From positions 5,152-69,151 of the forward strand of contig CAYTZB010000005.1 of the NCBI GenBank assembly GCA_964442455.1: DNA of 64,000 bases. The letters run 5' to 3'. This document shows, in pieces, positions 3,466-31,431 of this stretch; the stretch's first letter is position 1; each line of letters begins with the position of its first letter. The translations under genes were made by a program, and so were the position numbers. Under the pieces are notes generated by a model that saw nothing but the letters and a program-made list of their open reading frames with translations, did no database searches and had not been told where the DNA came from. The DNA is from an uncultured Gammaproteobacteria bacterium. GTDB taxonomy: Bacteria; Patescibacteriota; Microgenomatia; UBA8517; JACQJR01.

Positions 3466-5858
3466 TTATTTCTCCTTAAAAAGATAACCAAAAGTAAGAG
3501 TAATGCGACAGAAACACCTGTTATCTTGATACCATTGTAAAAGGAATCTGGTTCGTAGACAAATCTAATCTCATGCTCGCCTGCAGGAACATTAATTGCG
3601 CGAAAAGTATAATTGGCTTTATAAATTTTAGTTTCTATCCCATCAACAAAAGCCTTCCAGCCGGGATACCAAGTTTCGTCCACAAATAGAAATCCATAAA
3701 CGGGCGTTGAAACATTTAAAATGTTTTCCTGCTCTTTATAAGACAAATATTTCACTTCCGATGCAATCCCTTTTGTCAAATTTGTCAAAGTTGACTGTTT
3801 CGCCAAGACAAGTTCACTCAAGAATATTTTCTTGCCGGCTTCAAACTCCGAATCCAGCATTTTCTGCAATATCTTGTCGCTATCACCTTCAGTTTCCCAA
3901 TCAAATACCATAAATGCCCGAGGCAATGCATCTTTATTCTCTAGTACCACAACACTTTTATCCCGAAATACTTCTTTGTACTTCTCAATATCAACTACAC
4001 CCAAGCTACCACCTTTTACCAACACATATTTTGTATTAATTAAAGGAGATTCCCGATTTGTAATAATTCCGTATCTATCTTGTGGCTTAGCACCTGCATC
4101 ATTGCTATTTATAACTCCTATAAATTTTGCCATTTCAAATGGGTAAACCGCATCGTATCCGCTAATGCTCTCAATTTTGTAAGGAATAAATAAGTTTGCC
4201 GGGACAACATTTGCGCCATCAAACCGAAACGGCTGTTTCTGATTTTTCAGAAATTCTATAATTGGAGTTTCTGGATAAACTATATGGCGAGAAACGAAAG
4301 GTGTAAATTTCCAGCCAAAATAAAAAAGTTCTGTTAATAAAATCAAGAAAAACCCGCAAACTACAAGTTGCTTGGGAATTTTCCACTTTGTTAGAAGCAA
4401 AAACGCTATTAATACTCCCACCAAGGAAGCGAATGGCAAAATCAAATTCCTTATTGCAACTTTCTGCTGCCATTCTTCATGAATACCAAAAAATGCATAG
4501 AACAAAAAGCTAAGTAAAATTATAGTTGGTACAAGGATAGAGATTTTAAGAGAAGTCTTTGTGCGGCCCAAAACATAATCCATCCCAATTGCTGCCATTA
4601 AAGAAATTGAAAGCGTGAATAAAACAAGAGCGCGCAACGAAACCCCCGCTTGTATTCCTAGGGGGTTTGTCTGCCAAAGAAAAAGAGAAATTGGTGTGGG
4701 AAAGGCAAGAAGCAAAGATAAGACAGTAAGTAAAATTAAAAATTTAACTTCCTTTTTATCTCTCCACTGGTACAAAGTCAAAAACGCCAAAATTATACTT
4801 ACAACCCCAACAAAACCAACAACAGAGGTGTAATTTTTAGGACCCCAATAGTTACCGGTTGCATGGTTACCAAAAAAATCAGGAGCTAAAAATGTTATAA
4901 CCTGTTCCCATGATAAGAAAGCCCATTCCAAGGGTATCACTTCTCCTACTCTTTGCGAGAGGGACATAAGTTCGTACCCTGGTAGAGCTTGTATGGCTGA
5001 AATTCCCAAGCCCAAAAGAGTAAATATCAAAAGGAGTAATGTCTTTCTCCAAAACTTTCCTGTGCTCCAAAAAACAATGAACCAAAATAAAAAAATTGCG
5101 ATTAATGAATAGAAAACAATCTGCGGATATCCAGAAAAAATTTGAAGTGCCAATACTATAGATAAACCAAAAGCTGTCCAGATGTTGCCAGATCTACCCC
5201 ATCTATCAACTAATAAGATAGCCAGTGGAATAAACGCTGCAGTTAATGCATGCGCATTCCATTGAGACCAAATTAGGTTAAATCCCGAAAAAGCAAAAAT
5301 AATTCCTCCAAAAACAGATGAAGTTTTTGAAATTCCCCAATTCCGCAGAAGTAAATAAGTAAATATTGCTGCCAGTAAATGCTGCAATATAACCTGAAGA
5401 CTCCACCCGGTTAATGTATCGGTTAGAAAATAGACAAAATTGGTTGGAGAAAATGGTGCTGATTGAAAATTGGCAAGAAGTGGCGTACCGGATAAAATAT
5501 AAGGGTTCCAGAGTGGCCATTCGCCATCTTTCATTAAATCAATAGCCAGCATCCGCATAGGAAAACTAAAGGATATCGCGTCAGATGTTATTGGGTTTTT
5601 AACTGATACTCCTGCTGGATAGCCCCAATTATAATCAAGCCAGGGAAAGTAAGCGCCAACTACGACATCTGCCGGAAGAGGAACTTTTTTTTCTAGCCAT
5701 ACTGGATAGAAAAAAACAAGAGGAATAAGGATAAGAAGGATAATTGGGAAAAAATTACGCAGTAATTTTACTAATCTCATATTCGAAACGGTCTTGAGAA
5801 AACTGTTTAGATATCTGTTGGACGATATGAGAAAGTATTTTTCTCCTCTTTTCGTCAT
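3462..5858 (-). CDS. YfhO-family membrane protein (GT-C-like glycosyltransferase)
   Basis: 798 aa. Motif 'WNPYILSGTPLLANFQSAPFSPTNF' is characteristic of the YfhO family. The listed start overlaps the upstream GT1 gene by 104 nt, so the true start is probably the internal Met (MRLVKLL...) near 5780. Confidence 0.65.
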   Translation of the reverse strand: MTKRGEKYFLISSNRYLNSFLKTVSNMRLVKLLRNFFPIILLILIPLVFFYPVWLEKKVPLPADVVVGAYFPWLDYNWGYPAGVSVKNPITSDAISFSFPMRMLAIDLMKDGEWPLWNPYILSGTPLLANFQSAPFSPTNFVYFLTDTLTGWSLQVILQHLLAAIFTYLLLRNWGISKTSSVFGGIIFAFSGFNLIWSQWNAHALTAAFIPLAILLVDRWGRSGNIWTAFGLSIVLALQIFSGYPQIVFYSLIAIFLFWFIVFWSTGKFWRKTLLLLIFTLLGLGISAIQALPGYELMSLSQRVGEVIPLEWAFLSWEQVITFLAPDFFGNHATGNYWGPKNYTSVVGFVGVVSIILAFLTLYQWRDKKEVKFLILLTVLSLLLAFPTPISLFLWQTNPLGIQAGVSLRALVLFTLSISLMAAIGMDYVLGRTKTSLKISILVPTIILLSFLFYAFFGIHEEWQQKVAIRNLILPFASLVGVLIAFLLLTKWKIPKQLVVCGFFLILLTELFYFGWKFTPFVSRHIVYPETPIIEFLKNQKQPFRFDGANVVPANLFIPYKIESISGYDAVYPFEMAKFIGVINSNDAGAKPQDRYGIITNRESPLINTKYVLVKGGSLGVVDIEKYKEVFRDKSVVVLENKDALPRAFMVFDWETEGDSDKILQKMLDSEFEAGKKIFLSELVLAKQSTLTNLTKGIASEVKYLSYKEQENILNVSTPVYGFLFVDETWYPGWKAFVDGIETKIYKANYTFRAINVPAGEHEIRFVYEPDSFYNGIKITGVSVALLLLLVIFLRRNK

Positions 5859-6834
5859 TAATTAATTGGAGCGTCTTCTCAACAAGAGCTTTTTGGGAAT
5901 TCCATAAGAGATTGTCTATAGGTTCAACAAGTATTTCTCTAAAACCCCCTTTATTAACAACAATAGGAATGCACCCTGCTGCCATACTTTCCACAACTGT
6001 AATCCCGAAATGCTCAACCTTTTCTGGCTCTTTTTCCTCATCAACACCAAATCCTGATGCTGACCAAAAAATTTTTGCTCTTGCGTAAAGCGATTTCAAA
6101 TGATTGAAATCTAGGCTTTCAATAATCTCTATTGGGTAACCTCTGGCTTCAAACCTCAAACTTTTAGCAAATTCTTCTCCTCCAATATCGCTTCCTCCTA
6201 CAAGAATAAGCTTCCATCCTTGCAAACCCCCATCAACCATTGTTTTAAATACCGACACTAACACATCTTGCCGTTTTGCTTGAAGGAGCTGGGAAAATCT
6301 TCCAACAGAAAGAATAACATCAGCTTTAGTTTTATGACCCGCCTTGCCGTCGGGCAGGTTTATATCATCGAACTGACCAACATCAACTGGTGGATATATA
6401 ACAACACTATCTACCCCATATTCTTTATCAATAAATTTCTTTGTAAACTTTGAATTACATACAACTTCATAAATTCTTCTTAACTTCAATCGATTAAAAA
6501 GTGATTTTCCTCTCACATTATGAAATGGAACTTGAAAGTGCAGAATATTTTTCTTGGCATATAAGCGTGGAATACTTCCATCTGATAACCAAAAACACAA
6601 ATCATATTCTCTTCCCTTATGAATGCTAGAGACAACTCTCACGCCAGATAAATCTAGCCCCAATCTATCTTCCAGTTTTTTTAATATTCCAGCATCATCC
6701 CATCCTACATCCACCTCCCACCCACTCTTTTTCAAAACGTGAGCAACTGTCATCACATACCGTTCCCCACCACCAAGAGTATCCAAATATGGATTGTAAA
6801 TTGCAGCCCTCATAGCCTTCTTTGCATTTCCCAC
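5755..6834 (-). CDS. Glycosyltransferase family 1 (GT4-type, GT-B fold)
   Basis: 359 aa. C-terminal 'EHFGITVVESMAAGCIPIV' is the classic GT1 E-x7-E region. Confidence 0.75.
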   Translation of the reverse strand: MGNAKKAMRAAIYNPYLDTLGGGERYVMTVAHVLKKSGWEVDVGWDDAGILKKLEDRLGLDLSGVRVVSSIHKGREYDLCFWLSDGSIPRLYAKKNILHFQVPFHNVRGKSLFNRLKLRRIYEVVCNSKFTKKFIDKEYGVDSVVIYPPVDVGQFDDINLPDGKAGHKTKADVILSVGRFSQLLQAKRQDVLVSVFKTMVDGGLQGWKLILVGGSDIGGEEFAKSLRFEARGYPIEIIESLDFNHLKSLYARAKIFWSASGFGVDEEKEPEKVEHFGITVVESMAAGCIPIVVNKGGFREILVEPIDNLLWNSQKALVEKTLQLINDEKRRKILSHIVQQISKQFSQDRFEYEISKITA

Positions 6835-7748
6835 AACTTAGCATACGTTATAAATCTGCTCCATCCTTGATAAATTGAAAAGACAACACCAGGTACTCCA
6901 TCCAAAAATCCTAGTTTTAAAACTAACCGATCAAAAATTTCGCCAATGACCGGACGGAAAAATCTCCACCATGTCATTTTCGGATGACCACTCTCAAGTA
7001 AAAGCCTTGCTTCAATTTCCGACCAGTTGTTCGTTTTCTTAACCATATCTGATAAATTATCTTCTTTTAAATGAATGAAAGGATTCTTAAGATATCCAAT
7101 TTCCCCGTTGATTTTTGGTTGTTCGTGTAGTTCACCTTCCCATTTAATTAGTGCGTCCTTTCTCATAAGTCGTATAACATAATCCGGCCACCAGCCTCCA
7201 TGGTGCAATTCTTTCCCAAAAACAAAATTTCGTCTTGGAATAGCATAAGCTACTATACTAGAGTCGGCGGGTGACACGGGTGGAAGGCCTGCCTGCGCAG
7301 GCAGGGGTCCCGATCCCACTTCGCTCTTCGAGCTTCGAGGGACAAGCACGCTGGTACTGGCGGGCCTGCCAGCCGAAGCTTTAGCGTAGGCGGGAGGGAG
7401 AACCCGGGGCAGGACCCGCCGACCACCCGGGGTAGGACCCCGAGCAATCATTTCCATAATTTCCTCTCTTAACTCTGGAGAAACTCGCTCGTCAGGGTCT
7501 ATATAAAAAAGCCATTCACCTTTTGCTACCTCTTTTCCTTGATTCCTCCAGGTATCAAAACTCCCCGGTTTTTGTCTTATCACACGAGCTTTATACTTCT
7601 TCCCAATCTCAAGTGTTTTATCGGTTGAGCCGCCATCCAACAGAATAATTTCTCCTATCCCTTCCACCAGATGGCGGACAGATTCTAAACATTCAGGTAA
7701 TTTTTCAGCAGCATTTTTTGTAAGAACGACAATTGATATCTGTATCAT
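6810..7748 (-). CDS. GT2-family glycosyltransferase carrying an in-frame GC-rich palindromic insertion
   Basis: N-terminus 'ISIVVLTKNAAEKLPECLESV...ILLDGGSTDKT' and 'DPDE' are the GT2 DxD region. A roughly 57-aa Pro/Ser/Arg/Gly-rich segment (RGPTPGGRRV...PVSPADSS) interrupts the conserved core. Confidence 0.75.
   Translation of the reverse strand: MIQISIVVLTKNAAEKLPECLESVRHLVEGIGEIILLDGGSTDKTLEIGKKYKARVIRQKPGSFDTWRNQGKEVAKGEWLFYIDPDERVSPELREEIMEMIARGPTPGGRRVLPRVLPPAYAKASAGRPASTSVLVPRSSKSEVGSGPLPAQAGLPPVSPADSSIVAYAIPRRNFVFGKELHHGGWWPDYVIRLMRKDALIKWEGELHEQPKINGEIGYLKNPFIHLKEDNLSDMVKKTNNWSEIEARLLLESGHPKMTWWRFFRPVIGEIFDRLVLKLGFLDGVPGVVFSIYQGWSRFITYAKLWEMQRRL
7263..7433. repeat. GC-rich palindromic insertion element (171 bp, divisible by 3) with 10-bp perfect terminal inverted repeats GTCGGCGGGT...ACCCGCCGAC, inserted in-frame in the GT2 gene
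   Basis: The segment is sharply GC-rich within an AT-rich gene. It contains nested palindromes (CCTGCCTGCGCAGGCAGG; CACGGGTGG/CCACCCGG) and a direct repeat CTTCGAG x2. Its termini match the element at 15888-16002. Confidence 0.55.
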
Positions 7749-8698
7749 GGATTAAAACTTCCTTTCCCAAAGTTACCAAAATAATAATCTAACACTCCTC
7801 GCCGCTGCCATGACCGCCCATTGAAAAGAAGACGCGCCGACTCACGAAGTAGCGCAAATCGAGAACGAAGTGGTGCAAAGCGGCTCCCAAAGAGAAGTCG
7901 GTTGCGAGTGATGTAATAATCATTCAACTCACTCCCAATCGCAGAACTTTGCGCAACTTTGTGCCAGAGATAAGCAGATGGAGCATATAAAGTTTTAAAA
8001 CCTGTCATTTTTGCCCTTTGACAAAAATCAGCGTCTTCCCAATATAAAAAATAAGACGGGTCAAGTAGCCCAATTTTTTTAAACACTTCTTTCTTGACGA
8101 ACATACACGCACCGGTCGCAAAATCAGTCTCTGTGGTACTATCGTATTGGCCTTTATCCACTTCATCCACCCCTCGATGGCTTGCCAAAACATTATCCCA
8201 GTTAATCGCTCCCCCCGCATACCATATAACCTTTCCCAACTCTCCCTTCTTATACCTATCTTTGTGGAACTCAAAACCTTTGTAAAAATAAATTTTAGGG
8301 GAAATTATGCCAGCATGCGGGTTATTCTCTGCTGTTTTAATCAATTGAACTATTAAATTCTTATCTGTAATCGTATCGTTATTAAGAAGTACCACGTAAT
8401 CGGCATAGTCTTTTAATGCCGCTTTTATGCCCATATTATTCCCTTCCGAAAACCCTAGGTTATTTTTGTTTTCAATTAATTGAAATTTCGTGGAAAATTT
8501 TGCAAGTGTACGTAAATTTTCAACCGACCCATCAGTTGAACCATTATCAACAACAATAGTTTTGAGTTCTGAGTTTTGCCGTGCGTCGCCAAAGGCTATG
8601 CCGGCGGCGCGAGTTCTGAGTTTTGCAATGCTATCCAAGCATTGCAACGTATCTTCTTTCCCATTCCAATTAAGAATAACAATTGATACTTTTTTCAT
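7745..8698 (-). CDS. GT2-family glycosyltransferase
   Basis: 317 aa. 'VSIVILNWNGKEDTLQCLDSI...IVVDNGSTDGS' is the GT2 motif. It contains a short GC-rich insert (RTRAAGIAFGDARQNSE). Confidence 0.75.
   Translation of the reverse strand: MKKVSIVILNWNGKEDTLQCLDSIAKLRTRAAGIAFGDARQNSELKTIVVDNGSTDGSVENLRTLAKFSTKFQLIENKNNLGFSEGNNMGIKAALKDYADYVVLLNNDTITDKNLIVQLIKTAENNPHAGIISPKIYFYKGFEFHKDRYKKGELGKVIWYAGGAINWDNVLASHRGVDEVDKGQYDSTTETDFATGACMFVKKEVFKKIGLLDPSYFLYWEDADFCQRAKMTGFKTLYAPSAYLWHKVAQSSAIGSELNDYYITRNRLLFGSRFAPLRSRFALLRESARLLFNGRSWQRRGVLDYYFGNFGKGSFNP
8564..8626. repeat. 31-bp GC-rich insert flanked by a perfect 16-bp direct repeat (GAGTTCTGAGTTTTGC) inside the GT2 CDS
   Basis: 8564-8579 and 8611-8626 are identical. 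Between them lies cgtgcgtcgccaaaggctatgccggcggcgc, with imperfect palindromic ends GCGTCGCC/GGCGGCGC. It sits between the conserved CLDSI and IVVDNGS motifs. Confidence 0.5.
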
Positions 8699-8797
8699 TT
8701 TGAGCCCTGCGAAAAAACAAGCTCCGCTTATTTTGAGCCCTGCGAAAAAACAAGCTCCGCTTATTTTGAGCCCTGCGAAAAAACAAGCTCCGCTTAT
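8699..8797. repeat. Perfect 33-bp tandem repeat x3 (TTTGAGCCCTGCGAAAAAACAAGCTCCGCTTAT), followed by a hairpin CCGCTTA-tcgggt-TAAGCGG
   Basis: Three identical copies at 8699-8731, 8732-8764 and 8765-8797. The array starts immediately 5' of the ATG of GT2 gene 7745..8698 and contains the stop codon of 8794..9687. Confidence 0.9.
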
Positions 8798-9687
8798 CGG
8801 GTTAAGCGGCGCAGGAGTTTATGAAATACAGTGGGTTTTCTCATACGTTTGGCTACTAACCAATGGTCCAGTTCTCCCTCTGCATCGGTAAGTGTATTAG
8901 TAACCTCCGAAGCATCAAGAGTGATAACCTTAAACTTTTCTGCTTCCCATACCTTCAAATACAGGATAAATTCGGAAAATGCCTGAAGGAGCGACAGCGC
9001 TAACCCATGAACACCATCCTTATATCCCTCTCCAGCTAAAAACCTACTCACAAACTCATTAGTTGGTTTCGTGAGTAAATCTCGCCAATTAAATTTGTAC
9101 CCATCTCTAATTTTTGTTTCTGCTTGAATTGAACTATAGCGGTTCATTCTTTCAAGATATTGAGAAATCGATTGGTAGTTATAGTGAACAATCGCAAATC
9201 TTTCCTGCGCCGGTAAATCCCATCCAACTCCATGGGTCTCGGGTACTGAATGGATAATCTCGCTCCATAAAACACTGCCCTTCTTAAAAAATCGAATCTG
9301 GTAATCTGGCCACCAGCGTGAGTGTCTCGTCCATTGTCCAAAAATAATATTTTTACGAGGAAGGCGATAAAAATCGGCATTGGGCTTTGTTGCTAATTTT
9401 TTTAATTGCTTTGCAAGACTGTCCGGAATCTCCTCATCAGCATCAAGAACTAAAATCCAAGGACCCAAAGCTTTATTAATCGCAAAGTTGCGGGCAGGCT
9501 CAACATAACCAGTTGGCTTGTGCGAATATACTTTTGCCCCCGCCTTTTTAGCTATTTCTTGAGTGGAATCCGAAGATTCCATATCCACCACCACAATCTC
9601 AGGAGCTAAATCTTTTACAGAGGCAAGAGCTCGAGGCAAATTCTTTTCCTCGTTCCAAGTATTTATGACAACCGAAATCTTCGCCAC
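8794..9687 (-). CDS. GT2-family glycosyltransferase
   Basis: 297 aa. 'ISVVINTWNEEKNLPRALASV...VVVDMESSDST...LDADEE' is the GT2 motif set. The last codons and stop lie inside the 33-bp repeat array. Confidence 0.75.
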   Translation of the reverse strand: MAKISVVINTWNEEKNLPRALASVKDLAPEIVVVDMESSDSTQEIAKKAGAKVYSHKPTGYVEPARNFAINKALGPWILVLDADEEIPDSLAKQLKKLATKPNADFYRLPRKNIIFGQWTRHSRWWPDYQIRFFKKGSVLWSEIIHSVPETHGVGWDLPAQERFAIVHYNYQSISQYLERMNRYSSIQAETKIRDGYKFNWRDLLTKPTNEFVSRFLAGEGYKDGVHGLALSLLQAFSEFILYLKVWEAEKFKVITLDASEVTNTLTDAEGELDHWLVAKRMRKPTVFHKLLRRLTR

Positions 9688-9706
9688 ACATAAATTGTAC
9701 CAGAAG

Positions 9707-11446
9707 CTAATCCACTTGGTAAATTACCACCTCTTCATTTTCAAAAATATTGGTTAAACCAAGCTGAGATTCCCCCAAACGGAATCGTTGGCCAAAAACC
9801 GGAGTTTGGGACAAAACCAGATAAAGATATCTAATTTTATTATCTTTTAAGAAATTTCTTACTTCGTTCTGATTAAGACTTTCAAGAGGAATTCTTGAAT
9901 CTTCACGTCTATGTCGCCACTCGTACCCTGTAATATCTAGATTTACCTCGTCTTCAAGAAAAACAGGTTTTTCAGAAAACGCAGAAACATATGCAGTTGA
10001 CTCATACAAATAGAGCGGGCGTGGTGGGTTATTAACTGCGGCTTCCGCTTTTAATCTATCAAACGGATAGGTAAGTACTACACCACGAGGTTGCCTCTCT
10101 AAAAATCTTAATGCCTCTAACTCCTCATGCGATATTTTTGCCGGCGGTCGTCCAGGTAAATAATGAAGTGTAAGCGTACTAATTGTGGTTGGGATAGTTA
10201 ACAAGATAAGACCTACTATTGCCAATTTACTTAATTTATTTTCTTCTACTAACTTACCTATAAAAAGTCCTGTATAAATTGCAAAAACAAAAAGAGAATA
10301 GTAAAAGAATTGAATTGTATTCCATGGAGTACCGGACTGTAATATCGCCATCGGCAAAACCGTTCCGAGAATCGCTATTGTCAAAAGGAAAACATCAACT
10401 TCTGAAAAATTTTTCCACAACCTTTGTTTAACAATACCCCATAAGCCGATCAAACGTGTTCCCATATTGCCAACAAAAAATATGACAAACGCTACGAGAT
10501 ACGCAGGAATAAGTTTTATCAATATGCCCCCTGTCTTGTAATTCATCATCGCCTCATAAAATCTCTGCCAGCCGAATCTATCTGATACTGCCATCATCGT
10601 CTCCAAGAACCAAAATGGTTGAAAAACAACTAATTGCCTTGCAGACTTGCCAGTTAGCCAGAGCAATGCAACTCCAAGTAAAAAAGACCCTAAAAGAACT
10701 ACCAAAAAATTACTTTTAAATGCGAATTTTCTAATATGGATTATTTCGAACAGTACCACCAACCCCAATCCTCCCATCACAAGTAGCCACGCATAAATTT
10801 TTATTTGCGCCAGCACGCTAAAAATTAAAATCGTAAATCCTAAATTCCTAAATCTATTTTGAAGACTCAGTAGAAGAATCATTCCTAGAAGAATTAAAAC
10901 AAGTGATGCAGCAAACGGTGGGTTAATGAGAGTTGATATTGCCTGTTGGGCCCAGAAAAGAGATTCCCCTCCAACCACGCCATCACGAAACAATGTAGCA
11001 ATCCACCCAAAATCCCCCGCAAAATAGACAAAAAAAGTAGCCCAGAGCGCCTGTGTTCTTGACTTTCTCCAGGCAAGCACAAACCAGTACGTCAAAACCC
11101 CAACCAAAACTGCAAGTAGTGGGGGGAGAATTTGAAAGTACAGTGTATGGGCTGGGATACTCGTAATCTTATGAATGATAGCCAAAGCGAGATCAAAACC
11201 AATATGATAATTTTTAATCTGCTCTCCTGAAAAAATAGGCATTTCAAGAGAACCACGAGATAAGTGATTAATTAATGCAATATGCCATACCCCGTCATGC
11301 CCATTCGGTCCCCAAAATCCCATACCAAATGGATATATAAGACCGCTTTTTACCATAGTAAGACTCCAGCTAAGGGCGCCTGTTAAAACCAATAAAATTA
11401 TTCCAATGTTTTTCTTCACTTTTTTTAAAACTCTATGAAGCTCCAC
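9707..11446 (-). CDS. Polytopic membrane protein, putative GT-C-type glycosyltransferase/polymerase
   Basis: 579 aa, at least 10 predicted TM segments. Sits between a GT2 and the Wzx flippase. Confidence 0.45.
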   Translation of the reverse strand: MELHRVLKKVKKNIGIILLVLTGALSWSLTMVKSGLIYPFGMGFWGPNGHDGVWHIALINHLSRGSLEMPIFSGEQIKNYHIGFDLALAIIHKITSIPAHTLYFQILPPLLAVLVGVLTYWFVLAWRKSRTQALWATFFVYFAGDFGWIATLFRDGVVGGESLFWAQQAISTLINPPFAASLVLILLGMILLLSLQNRFRNLGFTILIFSVLAQIKIYAWLLVMGGLGLVVLFEIIHIRKFAFKSNFLVVLLGSFLLGVALLWLTGKSARQLVVFQPFWFLETMMAVSDRFGWQRFYEAMMNYKTGGILIKLIPAYLVAFVIFFVGNMGTRLIGLWGIVKQRLWKNFSEVDVFLLTIAILGTVLPMAILQSGTPWNTIQFFYYSLFVFAIYTGLFIGKLVEENKLSKLAIVGLILLTIPTTISTLTLHYLPGRPPAKISHEELEALRFLERQPRGVVLTYPFDRLKAEAAVNNPPRPLYLYESTAYVSAFSEKPVFLEDEVNLDITGYEWRHRREDSRIPLESLNQNEVRNFLKDNKIRYLYLVLSQTPVFGQRFRLGESQLGLTNIFENEEVVIYQVD

Positions 11447-11566: not shown

Positions 11567-13066
11567 TTAACTCTTTCTGAAGGTGGCATATACATTTTTT
11601 AAATCTCGCAAAACTTGCTCGCCGACAATAACATAAAGTAGTAGAAGATAAGAAGCTATTCCTGACAAAACTAGAATAATTATTCCGAATAAATTCAGTG
11701 GGGTAATATTACCAACCAGGAATACAAAAATACCCATTCCTAAACTTGCAAGAACGGGTTTGCCTACACTTTCCAGAAAATTAAATCTCACAAATCGTGT
11801 AGCCCACACTATTGCAAAAATAGAGCTTGTTCCAACAATTGCAAATCCCAAAGCAGCTCCGTTAATGTGGTAAAGAGCGGCCAGCGCTGGTACGAGGAGC
11901 CATGTAAGCGTAGTCCACATAATCATAAGTCTAAAGGTAATTGTAATTTTGCCAATTGCCGCTAATACATTTGTAAGAGGAGTTGTTACGGCTGCCCACG
12001 CACTATTTATAGTAATAAGACCAAGTGCGAGCAATGCCGGCTGCCACTTCTCATAGCGAGGAATTACCTCTGTTAGTGGCCCCGCAAGAAGTACTAACCC
12101 GATAAGTGAGGGGAATACGAGAGCGCTTACGAAAAAAATAGAACGCGAAACCGCATGGGACAACTCCTTTTTATCATCCTGAAGACGCGAAAATGCAGGG
12201 AAAGTGACTTTTATCACCTGGTCCATAAAAAAACGTAGCGGGGCCTGTGCCCACTTTTGCGCCCAGCCCAAAAGTCCGACTCCCGCCGGCCCAAGAATCC
12301 CACCCAAAACCATAGTCATACCATCATCTTTTGCAACGGCCAAAAACGTATTTGCTTGATAGGGTAGACCAAAGCGCAGTAGTCTCGCAAGGGATTCCTT
12401 TGCGAACGCGAAACCGGGCATCCAAGGCTGGAGCAAGTAAATTATAATAAGACCTGCAAAACCTCGCACGAGTACTGCAATAGTAAAGCTTGTTATTCCT
12501 GCTCCTTGCCACGCAAAAAAAACCGCAACTCCATAAAACAAAAATGTTTCAATTATTTGAGGAATTATTAATTTTTCAAACTTTAACTGTCGTTCAAGAA
12601 GGACAGAAGGGATAGTTTTAAGAGAAGACAAAACAAGCGTTGCCGCAAGCGCCCATAAAAGATAGACAGATTGCTGACTGAACCCATACAACTTTTGAAA
12701 AAGTGGTGTTGCGGCAACGATAATAATCACCAAAAGTACTGTCAAGCCCTGTTGAATAGTAAATGTGGTCCGCAATTCCTCCTCCTTTGCCGCCTCTTTC
12801 TTTTGAATAAGCGCAGCGGCCAAGCCAATATCAGAAAAATATGCAAAAAAATTAATAACCGCTGATACTAAAAAGAATACCCCGTATTGTGTTGGAGTAA
12901 GGAAAATTGTGAGAAGAAACGTGGCAACAAGCGCAACTGTTTGAAGAGCGGCCGTCCTACCAGTGAGTACCACGACTCCCCTCACCGCCCGCTTCTTTAC
13001 CGTCTCAAGAGAAATTTCCTCTGTTGGACTTAAATGCTCACCAGCTTCAATTCCTACCACACTCAA
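11567..13066 (-). CDS. wzx: Wzx-like MOP-superfamily oligosaccharide flippase
   Basis: 499 aa, about 12 TM. The N-terminus '...RGVVVLTGRTAALQTVALVATFLLTIFLTPTQYGVFFLVSAVINFF...AALIQK' is typical of polysaccharide biosynthesis/Wzx proteins. Confidence 0.7.
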   Translation of the reverse strand: MSVVGIEAGEHLSPTEEISLETVKKRAVRGVVVLTGRTAALQTVALVATFLLTIFLTPTQYGVFFLVSAVINFFAYFSDIGLAAALIQKKEAAKEEELRTTFTIQQGLTVLLVIIIVAATPLFQKLYGFSQQSVYLLWALAATLVLSSLKTIPSVLLERQLKFEKLIIPQIIETFLFYGVAVFFAWQGAGITSFTIAVLVRGFAGLIIIYLLQPWMPGFAFAKESLARLLRFGLPYQANTFLAVAKDDGMTMVLGGILGPAGVGLLGWAQKWAQAPLRFFMDQVIKVTFPAFSRLQDDKKELSHAVSRSIFFVSALVFPSLIGLVLLAGPLTEVIPRYEKWQPALLALGLITINSAWAAVTTPLTNVLAAIGKITITFRLMIMWTTLTWLLVPALAALYHINGAALGFAIVGTSSIFAIVWATRFVRFNFLESVGKPVLASLGMGIFVFLVGNITPLNLFGIIILVLSGIASYLLLLYVIVGEQVLRDLKNVYATFRKS

Positions 13067-13069
13067 ATT

Positions 13070-13200
13070 GTAGCATTATTTCGAGCGTCAGCGAAAAACA
13101 AGCTCTGCTTATTTCGAGCAAAGCGAGAAACAAGGTTCTGTGTAAAGCACAGGTTCTTATTTCGAGCTTACGAGAAACAAGGTTCTACGCGAAGCGTAGG
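13070..13200. repeat. Degenerate array of three copies of the same repeat family seen at 8699-8797 (TATTTCGAGC-N-GCGAAAAACAAGCTCTGCTTAT...)
   Basis: Copy 1 'tatttcgagcgtcagcgaaaaacaagctctgcttat' aligns to 'ttttgagccctgcgaaaaaacaagctccgcttat'. Copies 2-3 are more diverged and carry hairpins CTGTG-taaag-CACAG and CTACGC-gaa-GCGTAG. The array lies immediately 5' of the flippase ATG. Confidence 0.7.
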
Positions 13201-13203
13201 TTA

Positions 13204-14688: not shown

Positions 14689-16533
14689 CTACATTCTAGC
14701 ACGCGAAAGCCGTTTCCTCCACCATGGAAGAGTAATAAGTATTCCCCAAGAAACAAGAGAAATTAAATTTCCAGCAGTGCGGGGAAAAGTATTATAGAGT
14801 TTGGCGTAAATTTCGTGCTCGCCTTCTTTAACGGTTATGTGCATTCGGCCTAACTCGTCATCATCTCCGGTAATTTCTGTTTCTTCCCCATCAATAAAAA
14901 CTCGCCAATTTGGAAATTGAAAAATATTTATTCTTGCTTTAGCACTTTCGCTTTCAATGGCAATTTTAAATTTCGCCCAGTTTGTTCCTTCACTAGTATC
15001 TGAAATATCACCCTCACCGCTCGTTATTTCGGCCAATGTAGTTCTTGGTCCTTGAGGCGCAATTCTTGATGTTTTTGGGAGATAATCATAAATCCCAGCC
15101 GTTTGTTGAAGCTCCCACGCAGCATTTGCAAATTTCTCTTCATCAGTTAAAGGACCCATGCGATAAGGCTTGAAGTAGTCTTTGTTAAACAACATCACTG
15201 TAACCAAAAGTATGACAACTAAAACTAATGTCCACCTACGCTTTCCATTAAGAAGCGGAACGAGCGCACCTATAACAAATGAAAAAGAAAGGATTACAAT
15301 TGTTAAAAATCGCCAAGGAAACTGAACAATAGAAAGGAATGGTAAGGCAAGCCAAATGGGGGTTGAACGCACATGGGCCATAAAGGCGGTGGCGAAGCCG
15401 AAAGTTAGCATGTAGCTTATGGCCAGTAGCGAATTGGTAGAAATTTTTCCTTTTCTTGCTAATTTAACCAGTACTAACGAACCTATAACTAATGCCAAAA
15501 TCCAGTGTATATGCCCAATTTGGAATGACATTCCGTCATTCTCCCCCCATACCGATGGTCCATAACCCCAAAATCGAGAAAAAAACAATTGATTAATATC
15601 TGCAAAATGGGCAATGTATTCATAATATCCTTGTGTGAGTGTATCGACGTGTACCAATCTCTGCTCGAGTATCACCGGAATGCTAAAAAATGCTGCCAAC
15701 CCAAATGCCCAAATCCCTGAAATTAAAAGTTGGGGGATTCTACTCCACGCATACCCTCTATACAACCAAAGTAAACACCAAATAGCAAACACAGGCGTGA
15801 AGATAAGCACCATAACATTGTGCGACAATAAAAGCGCCGCCCAAGAGAGCGCTAAAATAACAATCCATCTTAAATTTAATAGTAAAAGCGACGGGTGACG
15901 CGAGCGGAGGGAGTCCCACCGAGCGCCCGCAACCCGCCCAGACTGCTCGACTGTTGGCGGGGAGGACGTCGGGTGGGACGAGCGAGCGGCAGGACCCGTC
16001 GCAATAACCTTTTCAGCAATCAACTTAAAACTTGCCCACAAAATTAGCGGAACCCAGGCCAGCGCCCACGCCTCATTCATTGCTCCCCGCACATACACGT
16101 CAACCGCGTGATATGGCGCCCACACATAAAATACACTCGATAGTACCCCGCCAAGCCTGCCCCAAAATTCGCGCGCTAAAATATACATCGTTACTGCGGA
16201 CAACACGAAACTCAAGAAAAAGGTGAGCTTCACCGTCGTAATAAAAGAAACGCCTGTGAGCCTTATCACCTGCCCTACCAAATAGGGAAGTGGCGGATAG
16301 TAGTTAAAGAGTGGAAACCCATACCCATAACCCATATCCGGTACCCAACGGCAGGGGATTTGTAAATCTCGGAAGCACTTCTCCATCTCAAGTTGGCGCA
16401 TCATCTGTAAGTCATCATGCATGTTGAAGTATCCTGATGTGAGTAACACGCGACCCGCAAGAAATCCTAAAAACACTACCAAGATAATGGGCCAAAAATT
16501 AGAGAGACTCGTAATCCTTCGCAAGAATTTCAT
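14689..16533 (-). CDS. GT-C-like membrane protein (PTPS-related/'HDD-loop' family). Paralog of 60082..61755. Carries an in-frame GC-rich insertion.
   Basis: 614 aa. 'YFNMHDDLQMMRQLEMEKCFRDLQIPCRWVPDMGYGYGFPLFNYYPPLPY' parallels 'FTAHDIWHQVARFYHY...FGYPLFFFSYPLPW' of 60082..61755. The insertion encodes TGPAARSSHPTSSPPTVEQSGRVAGARWDSLRSRHP. Confidence 0.55.
   Translation of the reverse strand: MKFLRRITSLSNFWPIILVVFLGFLAGRVLLTSGYFNMHDDLQMMRQLEMEKCFRDLQIPCRWVPDMGYGYGFPLFNYYPPLPYLVGQVIRLTGVSFITTVKLTFFLSFVLSAVTMYILAREFWGRLGGVLSSVFYVWAPYHAVDVYVRGAMNEAWALAWVPLILWASFKLIAEKVIATGPAARSSHPTSSPPTVEQSGRVAGARWDSLRSRHPSLLLLNLRWIVILALSWAALLLSHNVMVLIFTPVFAIWCLLWLYRGYAWSRIPQLLISGIWAFGLAAFFSIPVILEQRLVHVDTLTQGYYEYIAHFADINQLFFSRFWGYGPSVWGENDGMSFQIGHIHWILALVIGSLVLVKLARKGKISTNSLLAISYMLTFGFATAFMAHVRSTPIWLALPFLSIVQFPWRFLTIVILSFSFVIGALVPLLNGKRRWTLVLVVILLVTVMLFNKDYFKPYRMGPLTDEEKFANAAWELQQTAGIYDYLPKTSRIAPQGPRTTLAEITSGEGDISDTSEGTNWAKFKIAIESESAKARINIFQFPNWRVFIDGEETEITGDDDELGRMHITVKEGEHEIYAKLYNTFPRTAGNLISLVSWGILITLPWWRKRLSRARM
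15888..16002. repeat. GC-rich palindromic insertion element with 9-bp TIR GCGACGGGT...ACCCGTCGC. Same family as 7263-7433.
   Basis: Both elements share a left end '(C)GGGTGAC(R)CG' and a right end 'GCAGGACCCG(Y)CG'. The segment is GC-rich inside an AT-rich CDS and the reading frame is maintained. Confidence 0.5.
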
Positions 16534-20127: not shown

Positions 20128-20167
20128 TTGGTTACTGGGTTACTGGGTTACTGGGTTACTGGGTAAC
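20128..20167. repeat. 8-bp tandem repeat TGGGTTAC x5 (3 perfect and 2 variant copies)
   Basis: Sequence is ttggttac tgggttac tgggttac tgggttac tgggtaac. It encodes the last 8 codons and the stop of 20140..21744, and lies 1-40 nt upstream of the ATG of GT2 19363..20127. Confidence 0.85.
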
Positions 20168-21744
20168 CTATGTCTCCTCTCTACCGTTATTCCTCCGAAC
20201 TTCACCTCTTTTTCAACTTTACCAATATTTTCCTGCCTCGCCAACCATGCGTCTAGCCTCTCGGGATGAGGTGGATCAACCTCATAGAGGGTATAGAGAA
20301 GTGGCACGTGCTCCTCTTTCGGCACTATCCCATATATTGTTGTTCCCCGCCACAAAAACAAATAATCGTAGGCATATGGGATTACCGGCGGGACATAAGA
20401 GTCAACATTAAAAGGAGTATTACCAGTATCTTCGTAAACCCAGTTAACTGCTTGTTTTTGGTTACCAAAAGCAATAGTATTTTGGCCGTCTACCCCTGAA
20501 GTTATATAACTTTGGATAACTGGAACATTAGTCTGCAAAAAAAGGTATAAAAAAATACCTAAAATAATTTTGCCAAACAAGGTATTGACAATAGTCGTTA
20601 ACAGAACAGAAAACAACAAAATAAAAATTAAATAGTATCCTGTAAAGTAATAGTCATAAATATTACCGTAATTACCCTGGAAGAAAAGCATTCCGGCAAG
20701 TGGGGAGAGGAAAATAATAAGTAATGTAACAAATTTCTGATTTGCAAAAAAAATCTTTCTGTTTATAATCAAAACTCCAAGTGAAATAATTCCAAATATA
20801 AATCCGTAATTTTTATAACTCATAAAAAGCTTTGAATTAAAAACATCAAAGTAAAAAAACAACCTTTGTCTGGCTACTTCCCAAAATGAACCCTTAAAAT
20901 TACCATCTCCAATTAAAAATTTAGCAATTCCAGATCTTAATATTCCATCATGGCGCAGGTCAAAAATTATTTGCGGTAAGAATGGAATAACCAAAGCAAT
21001 AACAAATAAAATCCAAATTTTCAAATCTGGCAAATTTTTCTTTTGCCCGCTTCGCGAGGCGAGCCAGATTGCAAAAACTAAAACAGCAGGAAAATAAAAA
21101 ACTTCAGCTGCTGAACCAAATTGCATTGCAAATCCTAGCATAAGTCCAGTAATAACCCATCCCCACCGTTTGCCTTTTATAATTAAAAATAAAGAAAGTA
21201 CAAGCAACATGCTAATAAGAAGCATTGGTGTTGGATTTGATAGCCAACGTGAGGCATAAACCAACTGAAAAGAAAATGTAGAAATTATAGCAGCAACAAG
21301 CCCTGTTAATCTTCCCGATACCATTACTCCGAGGATATAAATAAGTAAACTTGCAACAACGGTGGTAAAAGACAAGAATACTGATGGCCAAACTGGATTT
21401 CCGTTCCCTAATAAATAAAAAGGGGCAATCAACCAATAGTACCAAGGGCCGCGAAAAATTCCTTCTATTCCAGTTGTCGGCCCGATAAGGAAAAATTTAC
21501 CCTTATGCCACAAATCCCAAATGACAAGCGCATCTCTTCCTTGGTCATAATAAAACCCAAGGAGATTATCAATTCTCCAAACTCTCACCAAAAAAGCACC
21601 TAGAAGAATTATTGACAAAATTAGATATATTCTCGAGTGAGTCAATATCTCAGCTCTCAAACCGCTCAGCCATCGTCTCGTTCTTGTTACACTGTTATCC
21701 TGAAAGGACAAGCTCTGCTTACGTAGGGGTATAAGATTAGCCAT
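20140..21744 (-). CDS. GT-C/ArnT-like membrane glycosyltransferase (paralog of the 1..983 gene)
   Basis: 534 aa. 'YYDQGRDALVIWDLWHKGKFFLIGPTTGIEGIFRGPWYYWLIAPFY' matches the 1..983 product. The N-terminal 35 aa is uncertain: a degenerate copy of the intergenic repeat (aaaggacaagctctgcttacg) overlaps 21700-21725. Confidence 0.55.
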   Translation of the reverse strand: MANLIPLRKQSLSFQDNSVTRTRRWLSGLRAEILTHSRIYLILSIILLGAFLVRVWRIDNLLGFYYDQGRDALVIWDLWHKGKFFLIGPTTGIEGIFRGPWYYWLIAPFYLLGNGNPVWPSVFLSFTTVVASLLIYILGVMVSGRLTGLVAAIISTFSFQLVYASRWLSNPTPMLLISMLLVLSLFLIIKGKRWGWVITGLMLGFAMQFGSAAEVFYFPAVLVFAIWLASRSGQKKNLPDLKIWILFVIALVIPFLPQIIFDLRHDGILRSGIAKFLIGDGNFKGSFWEVARQRLFFYFDVFNSKLFMSYKNYGFIFGIISLGVLIINRKIFFANQKFVTLLIIFLSPLAGMLFFQGNYGNIYDYYFTGYYLIFILLFSVLLTTIVNTLFGKIILGIFLYLFLQTNVPVIQSYITSGVDGQNTIAFGNQKQAVNWVYEDTGNTPFNVDSYVPPVIPYAYDYLFLWRGTTIYGIVPKEEHVPLLYTLYEVDPPHPERLDAWLARQENIGKVEKEVKFGGITVERRHRLPSNPVTQ

Positions 21745-23942
21745 TATGGTTTCCCGCTTGGATTATGTACAAGTCTGTATAATTTTACCCCTGCCACGTC
21801 CCACTCTTTGTCAATCTTAGACCAACCAAAAACCGTAATTTCTGCCTTGGGATTATGTGTCGGGTCACACTTTTCTTGAGGTAACTCACATACAACAAAT
21901 AATTGCTCAGCAACTGTTTCCTCATATTTTAGAGGGTCTATATCTCTTACTGGTTCTTTCCACCACTCAAGGAAATACTGATAAGCATCTTCATAATTTC
22001 GCTCGGCCAAGACAGCCAAATTAAATGTTTGGCCTTTTGCTTCCTGCACAATCTTTGCTGCCACCTCTCCCGTCCTCTGAAGTTGCCTTTGGGGAGGATT
22101 CTTGATTGGTGTCATGGAAAGGTTAAGTAGTATCAAAAACACTAAAGCAGCGAACAGTAAAAAGTTTGTAATTTGTAATTTGTAATTTGTAATTTCTTGG
22201 GCTAACATGCCCAACAAAAAAAATGGTATCACAAACATAAATCCAAAATAGTGGTCGTAGATATTTTGTTTTAAAAGTGCCATACCGCTTAAACCGAACC
22301 CCACCCAAACAAGGAGGAGGAAAGAGGGTGACTGGAAGAATGTTTGGCGCTGTTTGGCTACAATCCAAAATGTACCTATAAGGGTAACCACGGCAATGAA
22401 TCTTCCCCACAATTCGTTCATTGCACCAACCAAACGTGTCATCTCTTGCTGGAACAATGGCCACAGTTCTGGAATTGCATTCCAAGGACGAGCAGAAACA
22501 GTGGCTTGCCGCTCGGTAAAGAAAATACGCATTGCCTCAAAATTGCGCCAACCATGGCGGGCATCGAAGATAACGAGAGGAGACATGAGTAGCGCAAAAA
22601 GCGCTGAGGCGATGAGAGTATAGAGGATGAATTTTCCATTTATTTTCGAATTTCTAATTTTTTGAAATGTCAGAAGCCAGAATAGTCCAATCGTTGGAGC
22701 AAGAAGTAGACCAAGATAATGAGACTGTAACACAAACGCATACGACACACCTAAAACTAAAAGCCACTTCCACTCGTGGTGTTTCCATACACGCCACACT
22801 GAATAAATAGACAAAAGAGCAAAAAAGGGCATGATATTAGGATTCCAAGAGGAGCGAGAATAGGTAATCACAACTGGTGAAACTGCATACAAACTTGCGG
22901 CAACAACCGCCGCTACTTTTCCAAACCACTCCCTGCTAACCCACCAAACAAATCCGGTAGTAGCGACTCCGAGAGCAGCAACTTGCGCTACGGGGCCAAC
23001 TGGGGAAAGACGAAAAAGAAAAAGTGCCGGTGCAATCAGGTAATAATAAAGGGGTCCCAGATACATATTGCCAATAGAGGTACCCGGGCCGACTAAAATA
23101 GGGTCGAAGTCAACGAGGAGACGCCGCACCACAATCGCATCCCTTCCTTCGTCTCCCAGAAAAGTCATATACTCTGATAATCGATAAAATCGAAGAAACG
23201 CACCAACGATTAAAATTGTGAGTAAGGCAAAAAATTCAAGTTTCGGCAAGAATTTCCACCAAATTTTAAAAAGATCGATGTAAGACTGTATTATTACTTT
23301 TATATTAGCTCCCGTAGGTCTGCCAGCAAGACGTGGATAATGGTTAACTCCCACCTCAACAACGTTAAACCCAAATTTTTTAGCCTTTACTGCAAGTTCT
23401 GCATTAATCATTCCTCCCCGTTTCGACTCAAGATGTGGAATCTGCTCGAGCACTCTTTTTTTAACCATCTTAAAGCCGCAATCAACATCCCGAAGTTTCA
23501 GTCCAAAAAGGGTAAATAAGGATAAAGCCCACCCTTTTGCAAAAAGAAGTCTAAAAAATGGGTCTTGCCTTTTAATCCTGTATCCAATAATCAAATCGGC
23601 GGTATCTAATTTTTCTATAAATTTTGAACTTTCTGAAAAATCAAATTGCCCATCAGAATCGGTATACGCAATTACATCGTAGCGGGCGTTATAAAATCCT
23701 GACTTTAAAGCCTCACCATAACCTAAGTTTTCCTTATGATTAATAACTCTAATCCTATCATCCTGTTTACTTAGTTCTCGTGCTATCTCACCTGTTTTAT
23801 CGGTTGAGCCATCATTAATAATAATGACTTCCCACTGTGCCGCAACTTTTTTAAGGACACCGATTGAGCTTTTTACTGTACGTTCTAAATTTGCTTCTTC
23901 GTTATAAGCAGGGAAGAAGACAGAGAGCGCGCTGATTTTCAT
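21744..23942 (-). CDS. Bifunctional fusion: N-terminal GT2 (DPM1-like) plus C-terminal GT-C/ArnT-like membrane domain
   Basis: 732 aa. The N-terminus 'FFPAYNEEANL...IIINDGSTDKT...TDSDGQ' is GT2. From about residue 230 the protein is polytopic, with 'FLGDEGRDAIVVRRL...GPLYYYLIAP' resembling the other GT-C paralogs. Confidence 0.7.
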   Translation of the reverse strand: MKISALSVFFPAYNEEANLERTVKSSIGVLKKVAAQWEVIIINDGSTDKTGEIARELSKQDDRIRVINHKENLGYGEALKSGFYNARYDVIAYTDSDGQFDFSESSKFIEKLDTADLIIGYRIKRQDPFFRLLFAKGWALSLFTLFGLKLRDVDCGFKMVKKRVLEQIPHLESKRGGMINAELAVKAKKFGFNVVEVGVNHYPRLAGRPTGANIKVIIQSYIDLFKIWWKFLPKLEFFALLTILIVGAFLRFYRLSEYMTFLGDEGRDAIVVRRLLVDFDPILVGPGTSIGNMYLGPLYYYLIAPALFLFRLSPVGPVAQVAALGVATTGFVWWVSREWFGKVAAVVAASLYAVSPVVITYSRSSWNPNIMPFFALLSIYSVWRVWKHHEWKWLLVLGVSYAFVLQSHYLGLLLAPTIGLFWLLTFQKIRNSKINGKFILYTLIASALFALLMSPLVIFDARHGWRNFEAMRIFFTERQATVSARPWNAIPELWPLFQQEMTRLVGAMNELWGRFIAVVTLIGTFWIVAKQRQTFFQSPSFLLLVWVGFGLSGMALLKQNIYDHYFGFMFVIPFFLLGMLAQEITNYKLQITNFLLFAALVFLILLNLSMTPIKNPPQRQLQRTGEVAAKIVQEAKGQTFNLAVLAERNYEDAYQYFLEWWKEPVRDIDPLKYEETVAEQLFVVCELPQEKCDPTHNPKAEITVFGWSKIDKEWDVAGVKLYRLVHNPSGKP
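22165..22192. repeat. Heptanucleotide tandem repeat TTTGTAA x4 inside the CDS of 21744..23942
   Basis: Four perfect copies. On the coding strand this reads (AAATTAC)n and encodes ...EITNYKLQITN.... The unit length is not a multiple of 3. Confidence 0.85.
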
Positions 23943-27131: not shown

Positions 27132-27866
27132 ATGAAAATAGACATTATTACTTTGTTTCCAGATATGTTTCTGGGACCCTTTAATGAATCCATCCTTCGA
27201 CGGGCTCAGGATAAATCATTAGTGGAAATAAACATTCACAACCTTAGAAAGTGGGCAATTGACACACACCGGACTGTGGATGATAAACCATATGGCGGAG
27301 GAGTTGGAATGGTATTGATGGTAGAACCGATTCATCAAGCCCTACAGGCACTACGAACTACCAACTCCCAGCCACATACTATTTTACTTGATCCTGCTGG
27401 TATCCCTTTCAATCAAATAAAAGCACAAGAGTTGTCAAAATTAGACCATCTCATACTTATTGCCGGCCATTATGAAGGGGTGGACGAACGCGTCAAAGAA
27501 CATCTTGTGGATGAAGAATTATCAATTGGTGATTATGTTTTAACCGGTGGAGAGCTGCCTGCAATGGTAGTAGTTGATGCGGTAGTCAGACTCATACCCG
27601 GAGTTCTCGAAAAACCCGAAGCCACCCAATTTGAATCCTTCTCCCCAATCACTAATCACCCCGCCGAAGGCGAGGCTCGCCAAGGGCGGCAATCACTCAT
27701 CACTACCCTTGAATATCCCCAATATACTCGTCCTGAAAACTTTAAAGGATGGAAAGTTCCACAAATACTTTTATCGGGAAACCACAAGGAAATCGAAAAG
27801 TGGAGAAGTGAACACGCCCTTGAAAAAACAAAAAAAAGAAGACCAGATCTTTTAAAGAATTCTTAA
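27132..27866 (+). CDS. trmD: tRNA (guanine37-N1)-methyltransferase TrmD
   Basis: '[13 protein letters not shown]...[13 protein letters not shown]...[27 protein letters not shown]' is canonical TrmD. The ORF-track entry 26868..27866 has an 88-aa N-terminal extension. The ATG at 27132 has an AGAGG ribosome-binding site 6 nt upstream. Confidence 0.85.
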
Positions 27867-31147: not shown

Positions 31148-31393
31148 TTACAAAAGCAGGCTTATTATAATAATACTCCCCAACAGCGCAATACCCACAT
31201 ATTCTACCACAACTTCAAAATATAAGTCATCGTGAAGGAAGTGGTGTACAATTCCCCAAGTAACGTACGAAACAGCCAGAGCAATAATCAATGCGATTTG
31301 AAAATTTTTATCCCAGGAAAAAACACTGAAGCCAACAAGCGCTATAGCAAAAAGCCCAAAAAGAACAAGATAGTGTGAAAAACGACGAGCCAT
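31148..31393 (-). CDS. Small membrane protein (2-3 TM), hypothetical
   Basis: 81 aa, hydrophobic. Starts 3 nt from the heptamer repeat. Confidence 0.4.
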   Translation of the reverse strand: MARRFSHYLVLFGLFAIALVGFSVFSWDKNFQIALIIALAVSYVTWGIVHHFLHDDLYFEVVVEYVGIALLGSIIIISLLL

Positions 31394-31395
31394 TT

Positions 31396-31423
31396 AAATT
31401 GAAAATTGAAAATTGAAAATTGA
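31396..31423. repeat. Heptanucleotide tandem repeat AAATTGA x4 in the 5'UTR/RBS region of 31148..31393
   Basis: Four perfect copies, immediately adjacent to the start codon and downstream of the stop of the CAP-domain gene. Confidence 0.85.
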
Positions 31424-31431
31424 AAATTTAA

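Follow-up and report, generated by a model that had tools for sequence, protein, structure and literature searches.

A 33-bp GC-rich palindromic element, probably inserted, within a heptamer array of a glycosyltransferase gene from the Candidate Phyla Radiation

A gene for a family-2 glycosyltransferase (GT2) in a 64,000-nucleotide stretch of the metagenomic contig CAYTZB010000005.1 (positions 5,152 to 69,151; hereafter the window) carries a short GC-rich block, the core, which lies within a run of 7-nt tandem repeats. The core is very probably one copy of a discrete, imperfectly palindromic, GC-rich mini-element of 33 bp that was inserted into this pre-existing array without target duplication and is translated through. 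The element is spread across Patescibacteria, the Candidate Phyla Radiation (CPR), with at least one copy in a Bacteroidota genome. This reading is carried by what the analysis shows: how long the insert is and that it keeps the frame, the prior existence of the array, the lack of any duplicated target, the identity with copies in other places, a strand rule and the position in a loop of the modeled protein. The features of the locus are the following.

7745..8698, minus strand: host gene, intact, encoding a family-2 glycosyltransferase of 317 aa (Pfam PF00535, E = 6e-20).
8558..8578: three heptamers, AGTTTTG AGTTCTG AGTTTTG on the plus strand, gene-distal, encoding QNSELKT (from the sequence and orthologs).
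8579..8611, plus strand: GC-rich core CCGTGCGTCGCCAAAGGCTATGCCGGCGGCGCG, codons 30-40 on the gene strand, an imperfect hairpin that is stronger on the plus strand; absent from 118 of 120 homologs.
8612..8625: two heptamers, AGTTCTG AGTTTTG on the plus strand, gene-proximal, encoding (A)KLRT (from the sequence); the core stands exactly at the unit boundary G|A.
8564..8626, plus strand: span singled out in an earlier note on this DNA, with two 16-bp copies; 47 = 14-nt array period + 33-bp insert.

The GT2 product is identical to the public protein P0001, has its closest relatives in Microgenomates/Patescibacteria, and finds its nearest solved structure in a galactofuranosyltransferase (E = 1e-9). 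The gene has 39% G+C in general, against 76% in the 31 bp between the two repeat copies. An alignment of the 120 best homologs places the insert at codons 30-40, where it encodes the 11 residues RAAGIAFGDAR within the peptide stretch AKLRTRAAGIAFGDARQNSELK. Typical homologs keep a constant spacing between the motifs CL(D/K)S and (V/I)VDN; nearly all of the 120 share one spacing, to which the window protein adds 11 residues, the outcome of a check that the earlier note had proposed. That note had described a mini-insertion between the CLDSI and IVVDNGSTD motifs of the minus-strand open reading frame 7745..8698. The position is borne out, and the insertion holds as well, the 11 residues being missing from 118 of the 120 closest homologs and identical DNA occurring in many unrelated places. 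The block is indeed GC-rich, as had been noted; its length, given there as 31 bp, has to be corrected to the 33 bp indicated by the orthologs (8579-8611), the unit that recurs in other genomes and that orthologs lack. The 16-bp repeat overlaps this unit by 1 nt at each end.

The repeat GAGTTCTGAGTTTTGC occurs twice on the plus strand, at 8564-8579 and 8611-8626, with 47 bp from start to start and no third copy in the window, as reported before; shuffled sequence gave a mean of 0.06 matches with 2 mismatches tolerated. Its 16 bp consist of the 14-nt periodicity of the array and one matching base on each side, and therefore 47 = 14 + 33. Translation reads the copies in different frames (AKLRT and QNSEL), again as claimed, since a repeat of 7 nt passes through each of the three frames in turn.

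Among the 120 homologs, only P0047 likewise has 11 extra residues in those columns, and its extra peptide GRASPKAMPAAR is the opposite-strand translation of the window insert. In the DNA of this homolog (L001, a Patescibacteria metagenome-assembled genome, 5091-5123), the insert is identical to the window core at 33 of 33 positions and lies at the matching codon, with its orientation relative to the gene reversed. The two GT2 genes share 65% DNA identity outside the insert, from which the probability of 33/33 identity by common descent is calculated as ~7e-7.

The sense-strand sequence of the window is G CAAAACT CAGAACT (33 nt) CAAAACT CAGAACT CAAAACT, and removal of the 33 bp leaves (CAAAACT CAGAACT)x2.5, that is, five tandem heptamers or 35 nt. 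L002, which is the closest ortholog (protein identity 72%), is insert-free and carries (CAATTTC)x5 at the matching codons; L087 and L088, also insert-free at this site, have five units of the AAGCTAC/AAATTAC type, and the L001 array reads AAATTGG AAATTGG (33 nt) AAATTTG AAATTGG AAATTGT. Five 7-nt units are present in the window, L001, L002, L086, L087 and L088, and no ortholog read as DNA showed a different number of units. At the protein level, a lag-7 residue match at three or more of four positions was found in 30 of 104 homologs and in none of 1200 control segments. The array is thus a pre-existing, family-wide feature whose unit sequence varies by lineage and whose length is fixed, a combination that points to concerted evolution under a length constraint. 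The arrays of L002 and L003, which come from different samples, are identical. L002 in fact holds two identical (CAATTTC)x5 arrays (5075-5110 and 5158-5195), ~45 nt apart, which flank the segment coding for VVDNGSTDGS; recombination between them would remove 81 nt in frame, and, with a unit of 7, they could be phase-variation switches. Other GC-rich hairpin inserts are found at the GT2 site in L084, L085 and L086 (21, 21 and 24 nt, respectively), those of L084 and L085 without flanking duplication.

Copies of the core elsewhere were collected by an exact scan for its central 21-mer, so that the central 21 nt are fixed by the method, and the flanks vary little. The 21-mer matched 19 contigs of GTDB species representatives and 61 metagenome contigs, and the full core is present in 65 non-redundant contexts once duplicates and the chance coding matches L005, L008, L033 and L080 are removed. 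Its one common polymorphism concerns the end, which reads ...GGCGCG or ...GGCACG. The hosts are mostly titled as CPR (Gottesman-, Levy-, Davies-, Wolfe- and Sungiibacteria, Saccharibacteria), some contigs carry the titles Gammaproteobacteria or Pirellulales, by title alone, and one host, L007, is a genuine member of the Chitinophagaceae (Bacteroidota), the homologs of its locus including a Flavitalea protein. In L007 (3493-3593), the core forms the first unit of a diverged tandem array, which has a 33-nt unit and lies upstream of a signal peptide. In a comparison with the homologs P0241-P0243, L007 has 3 units where a 97%-identical relative has 4, and relatives at 78-88% identity have no such region. 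Apart from this tandem, searching all fetched loci and the window with an nhmmer profile of the core brought up no diverged relatives, and scans of IMG/VR viral contigs, GenBank phages and PLSDB plasmids did not find the core. Searched as the 31-bp sequence that the earlier note had suggested, the core is unique within the window at up to 3 mismatches.

As RNA, the core strand folds with -18.5 kcal/mol (z = -2.2) and its complement with -14.0 kcal/mol (z = -0.8); as DNA, the core gives -11.3 kcal/mol (z = -1.2). G-C pairs dominate the predicted stem, which has an AAA bulge and, further in, a GGC/GCC stem; there is no CCA tail. Some copies lie within long terminator-like hairpins. Five of the six reading frames of the core are free of stop codons.

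The target shows a marked regularity. The base 5' of the core is G in all 65 contexts, the base 3' of it is A in 42 and C in 17, the commonest context is CGG|core|AGG, and flanking duplications are generally absent. Arrays enclose nine of the copies, which represent seven independent loci (the window, L001, the ribosomal protein gene uL4 in L057/L063, L064, L065/L049, L068, and DnaG in L082), and all nine lie at a unit boundary G|A. In 9/9 of these, the core strand is the one on which the array is G-rich and C-poor, whereas the other copies divide into 28 G-rich and 18 C-rich. The same rule explains why the core has opposite orientations at one codon of the two GT2 genes, those of the window and of L001: their arrays have opposite polarity, with AGTTTTG antisense in the former and AAATTGG sense in the latter, and the strand rule stays constant. 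Arrays make up ~0.2% of the window, yet much of the set of independent copies is found in them, which makes them hot spots in their own right, beyond what permissive loops would offer.

A recurrent site of another kind is found behind tRNA genes (Lys, Arg, Asp, Gln, Val), 25-35 nt downstream, where the core follows the tRNA orientation in 11 of 13 cases (loci L009, L027, L034, L038, L046, L060, L075, L012, L025, L017, L051 and L072). Some of these cores are set in a conserved trailer, ACTTTAGAAAAGCGCAAGCCAG|core|AGGAAGCCGCC, behind different tRNAs. L034/L060 and L046 share the left flank and the core up to ...GCCGGCGG and are unrelated beyond it, which marks a recombination breakpoint inside the core.

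Copies internal to genes, identified by Pfam, are found in uL4 (two copies), DnaG primase, DnaX, a 2-oxoacid:ferredoxin oxidoreductase, an M24 peptidase and PMT_2 glycosyltransferases, with one more at the C-terminal end of a GT4 glycosyltransferase. Together, the genic copies use all five open frames and never the frame containing TAG, and they are probably translated. The constraint on length and frame argues against splicing or ribosomal bypass. The uL4 gene (L057 347-414 / L063 878-945) carries two identical cores 14 nt apart in a single heptamer array, read in two frames as PCVAKGYAGGA and RASPKAMPAAR; between the heptamer pairs that flank them, 3 of the 14 positions are different, which favors repeated insertion over an old tandem duplication. 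At the uL4 insert site of L082, other AT-rich and GC-rich modules are present.

The TrmD gene of the window provides what appears to be a second, independent example of insertion without duplication, with a different module.

27646..27703, plus strand (gene 27132..27866): GC hairpin module in a heptamer array of TrmD, CAATCACTAATCAC then CCCGCCGAAGGCGAGGCTCGCCAAGGGCGG then CAATCACTCATCAC.

The module CCCGCCGAAGGCGAGGCTCGCCAAGGGCGG is 30 nt long (27660-27689). Among 120 TrmD homologs, many are array-free (ESFS-ENLLEYPQ), others have the array alone, and a subset has various GC modules at the array center; the array peptide of P0185, SPITDHRSPITT, has exactly the length of the window array minus the module. 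As in the GT2 gene, the addition of 30 nt is in frame, which 30 + 14 = 44 would not be.

At the protein level, the AlphaFold2 model of the window GT2 (mean pLDDT 94, pTM 0.92) places residues 30-40 in a loop between the helix at 14-25 and the strand at 43-51, with pLDDT <50 at residues 31-37. The 11 added residues are thus predicted to lie at the surface, as a disordered and tolerated loop that joins helix 1 to strand 2 of the GT-A fold. The mRNA is probably read straight through the 33-nt insert, which is most likely neutral, selfish DNA.

Regarding the mechanism, the element would have entered a five-heptamer array between its second and third units, at the boundary G|A, leaving the target unduplicated. 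A precise unit, the absence of duplication, the 5' G, the array strand rule and the lack of a linked gene together resemble the hairpins mobilized as single strands by HUH tyrosine transposases. Elements of that type enter 3' of a short motif, leave no duplication and require single-stranded DNA. The movement may consist of copy-and-paste of a single-stranded hairpin by an enzyme supplied in trans, in the manner of REP/RAYT (repetitive extragenic palindromic sequences and their associated tyrosine transposases) or IS200/IS605, with insertion 3' of a G where DNA would be transiently single-stranded, such as slipped tandem arrays and the flanks of highly transcribed tRNA genes. By analogy with these systems, this is the mechanism that we prefer, tentatively, as a possibility somewhat less likely than the sum of its alternatives. 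A broader proposal, which we regard as doubtful, is that Patescibacteria harbor an undescribed, strand-specific system that pastes GC cassettes of ~30-33 nt next to a G at heptamer-array boundaries, even in uL4, DnaG, DnaX and TrmD, drawing on a library that is radiation-wide and reaches beyond it, and that the AT-rich heptamer arrays, which are ~33 nt long, may be written or kept up by this machinery too.

Several observations weigh against the interpretation of the core as a discrete mobile element. The stability of its hairpin exceeds that of shuffled sequence only modestly, its boundary is ambiguous by 1 nt (G...G), and a permissive Rfam scan of 6500-10000 returned nothing at the core. In apparent contrast to classical REPs or miniature inverted-repeat transposable elements (MITEs), it is present as one copy in the window and as one or two per contig elsewhere, with almost no diverged copies. 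All-against-all clustering of the open reading frames around ~80 copies revealed no recurrent neighbor and no linked transposase or other enzyme. The nearest GT2 orthologs have 72-78% protein identity, with no closer insert-free allele. Finally, the TrmD arrays are themselves gains with respect to array-free orthologs, so that one process writing both arrays and modules is possible.

This last point leads to the view that a single undescribed process writes AT-rich heptamer arrays and GC modules as cassettes of ~30-35 nt, the array being part of the event. The TrmD arrays add ~8-12 aa relative to array-free orthologs and have the GC modules centered within them, the perfect arrays of the window are 31-35 nt long whether their unit is 7 or 8 nt, and 33-nt units recur in the core, in the tandem at 8697-8797 described below and in that of L007 (3 against 4 units in 97%-identical strains). 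We nevertheless consider this unlikely, given that the GT2 array is found at matching codons in many orthologs without a GC module, that the core is present both in arrays of very different unit sequence and in many array-free contexts, and that replication slippage is a simpler source of arrays. Lower still, and quite improbable, is the transposon-like insertion envisaged in the earlier note, in which a target of 14-16 bp was duplicated and a compensating indel restored the frame. The last 14 nt left of the core do equal the first 14 nt right of it, similar 7-nt matches are seen in L068 and L057, and casposases, which generate 14-15-bp duplications, and off-target CRISPR integration, with its repeat-33 bp-repeat layout, offer comparable arrangements. 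However, insert-free orthologs already hold all five heptamers at the GT2 site, and most copies of the core, as well as the GC inserts of L084 and L085, have no flanking duplication. Moreover, 33 + 14 = 47 in GT2 and 30 + 14 = 44 in TrmD would both break the frame, whereas the net addition of 33 nt preserves it and calls for no indel. On this ortholog comparison, the feature is real and was correctly recognized as an insertion, and the duplication and the paradox of the frameshift dissolve.

An ancestral core at the GT2 site, lost in most lineages and inverted in one, would account for the codon position shared by the window and L001. It is a very improbable account, as it has to reconcile 33/33 identity in the core with 65% identity in the genes, the more than 100 closer homologs without the core, the presence of the 33-mer in unrelated genes and intergenic DNA, and an orientation that follows array polarity. 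An artifact of assembly or binning, by a chimeric join or a technical sequence, might be suspected of a GC-rich block in AT-rich DNA from a metagenome assembly, and we hold it to be just as improbable: the reading frame is intact, the insert is an exact multiple of 3 and lies in a loop, the core is in frame in independent assemblies from many projects between 2016 and 2025, and its natural variants end in CGCG or CACG. Programmed translational bypass, with take-off in the first repeat copy and landing in the second, is the hardest of all to credit. Matching 16-nt sequences around a 47-nt gap with a GC hairpin superficially resemble T4 gene 60, with its 50-nt gap, or the mitochondrial byp elements. 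Against this, read-through keeps the frame and matches the orthologs on both sides, a 47-nt hop would shift the frame, and genic inserts are always multiples of 3 and avoid the stop-containing frame, neither of which skipped inserts would need. Insertion of a mobile 33-bp unit into an existing array thus remains the explanation that we prefer.

With respect to known systems, our literature search found no description of such elements in CPR, and the nearest framework is that of Di Nocera et al. 2013 (PMC3733652). The authors recognized GTAG- and CGTC-tagged REP superfamilies, defined by an unpaired terminal tag, an 8-9-bp stem starting with A-T pairs, a 4-5-nt loop and a CCA-like tail; they noted that REPs are occasionally intragenic, notably in replication/repair genes, and classed the Rickettsia palindromic elements (RPEs) RPE-4 and RPE-6 as CGTC REPs (PMC3733652). 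The core resembles REPs and bacterial interspersed mosaic elements (BIMEs) as a GC-rich imperfect palindrome with a predicted stem-loop, whose 33 bp fall within the 20-40 bp range, and which often lies just downstream of genes in transcribed orientation and combines with other modules into larger hairpins. Its hosts include the replication genes DnaG and DnaX, and, as for CGTC REPs, there is no known dedicated transposase. It appears to differ in copy number, with one or two copies per contig as against hundreds per genome, and it differs in being near-invariant across very distant hosts, whereas REPs are species-specific, and in its strong preference for heptamer arrays, with no RAYT gene seen near the copies (~80 loci). 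Membership of the CGTC REPs was considered and rejected, because the CGTC of the core (8585-8588) is internal, within the predicted stem, and tag, stem/loop geometry and tail all depart from the definition.

The RPEs in general are similar in being palindromic, in lying in frame in coding genes, including essential ones, and in being translated, as is probably the core, and tolerated at the protein surface. The core differs in its hosts, which are Patescibacteria and one member of the Chitinophagaceae, and is much shorter than RPE-1; to our knowledge, neither array targeting nor a strand rule has been reported for RPEs. In yeast mitochondria, mobile GC clusters and byp elements are short GC-rich hairpins whose spread through an AT-rich genome can take them into coding regions, a behavior shared by the core. 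Unlike byp elements, which are skipped by ribosomes and are frame-free, inserts of the core class are multiples of 3 and stop-free, and the hosts are unrelated. Casposons and off-target Cas1 activity are comparable in producing a ~33-bp insert between direct repeats of ~14-16 bp; here, by contrast, the repeats predate the insertion, the insert sequence recurs in many genomes and most copies have no duplication.

As for the array, cyanobacterial short tandemly repeated repetitive (STRR) sequences and contingency loci also have tandem 7-nt units, sometimes inside genes, and the unit of the GT2 array is not a multiple of 3, so that slippage could switch the glycosyltransferase gene on or off. The GT2 array appears to differ from a contingency locus in having five units in all orthologs read as DNA, with no copy-number variation among them. 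An excess of heptameric repeats in bacteria is on record (PMC4692102).

Selfish palindromic DNA within coding genes is known mainly from Rickettsia RPEs and scattered intragenic REPs, and the core brings an RPE-like lifestyle to the CPR. It is unusual in that the 33-mer is nearly unchanged despite the 65% gene identity of its hosts, in its strand-specific preference for heptanucleotide arrays, and in the nesting of a GC module in an AT-rich array in a gene linker, which recurs in essential genes. This wider pattern, a near-invariant mini-element with nested arrays and modules in essential CPR genes, is of more interest than the single locus. Such inserts inflate and distort alignments of CPR proteins and give spurious "low-complexity" peptides, and could mislead annotation, phylogenomics and structure prediction. 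If active, the element would naturally mark DNA that uncultured ultra-small bacteria have recently exchanged, and would offer a way to the mobilizing enzyme.

Further modules and arrays are found in the rest of the window.

7260..7449, minus strand: GC-rich mosaic of ~60 codons, in frame in the neighboring GT2 gene 6810..7748, an insert of the same class as the core, made of different modules.
22162-22198: period-7 array (TTTGTAA)x4.4, inside gene 21744..23942.
31393-31432: period-7 array (AAATTGA)x4.7, just past a stop codon.
20126-20168: array (GGTTACTG)x4.4, at the C-terminus of a gene.

The mosaic contains the perfect palindrome CCTGCCTGCGCAGGCAGG; at its site, the L002 ortholog has a different insert of ~30 aa and L001 has none. 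At 15886-16005 (gene 14689..16533, minus strand; peptide ...AGARWDSLRSRHPS), the window is 92% identical over 49 + 39 nt to L002 6256-6354, an insert that lies in a non-homologous gene, GT2 5957..6808. In these genomes, GC-rich modules therefore move from gene to gene. A stretch of 86 nt at 12225-12310, likewise GC-rich, was considered as a further module and set aside, being 100% identical to the orthologous gene of L002 and possibly native.

The spacer between the two GT2 genes (8697-8797) is filled by a perfect 33-nt tandem x3.1 (ATTTTGAGCCCTGCGAAAAAACAAGCTCCGCTT), the unit of which equals the core in length; in L002, the two genes are 1 nt apart. No copy of this tandem was found in the fetched loci. 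The perfect period-7/8 arrays of the window are 31-35 nt long; perfect arrays at other periods are absent from the window, and shuffled sequences contain none at all. An intergenic 47-nt tandem x2 at 13108-13202 includes the small perfect hairpins CTGTG-TAAAG-CACAG and CTACGC-GAA-GCGTAG. Across the window (1-64000), GC skew is negative throughout and nearly all genes are on the minus strand, with a G+C content of ~35% at the ends and ~47% in the middle.

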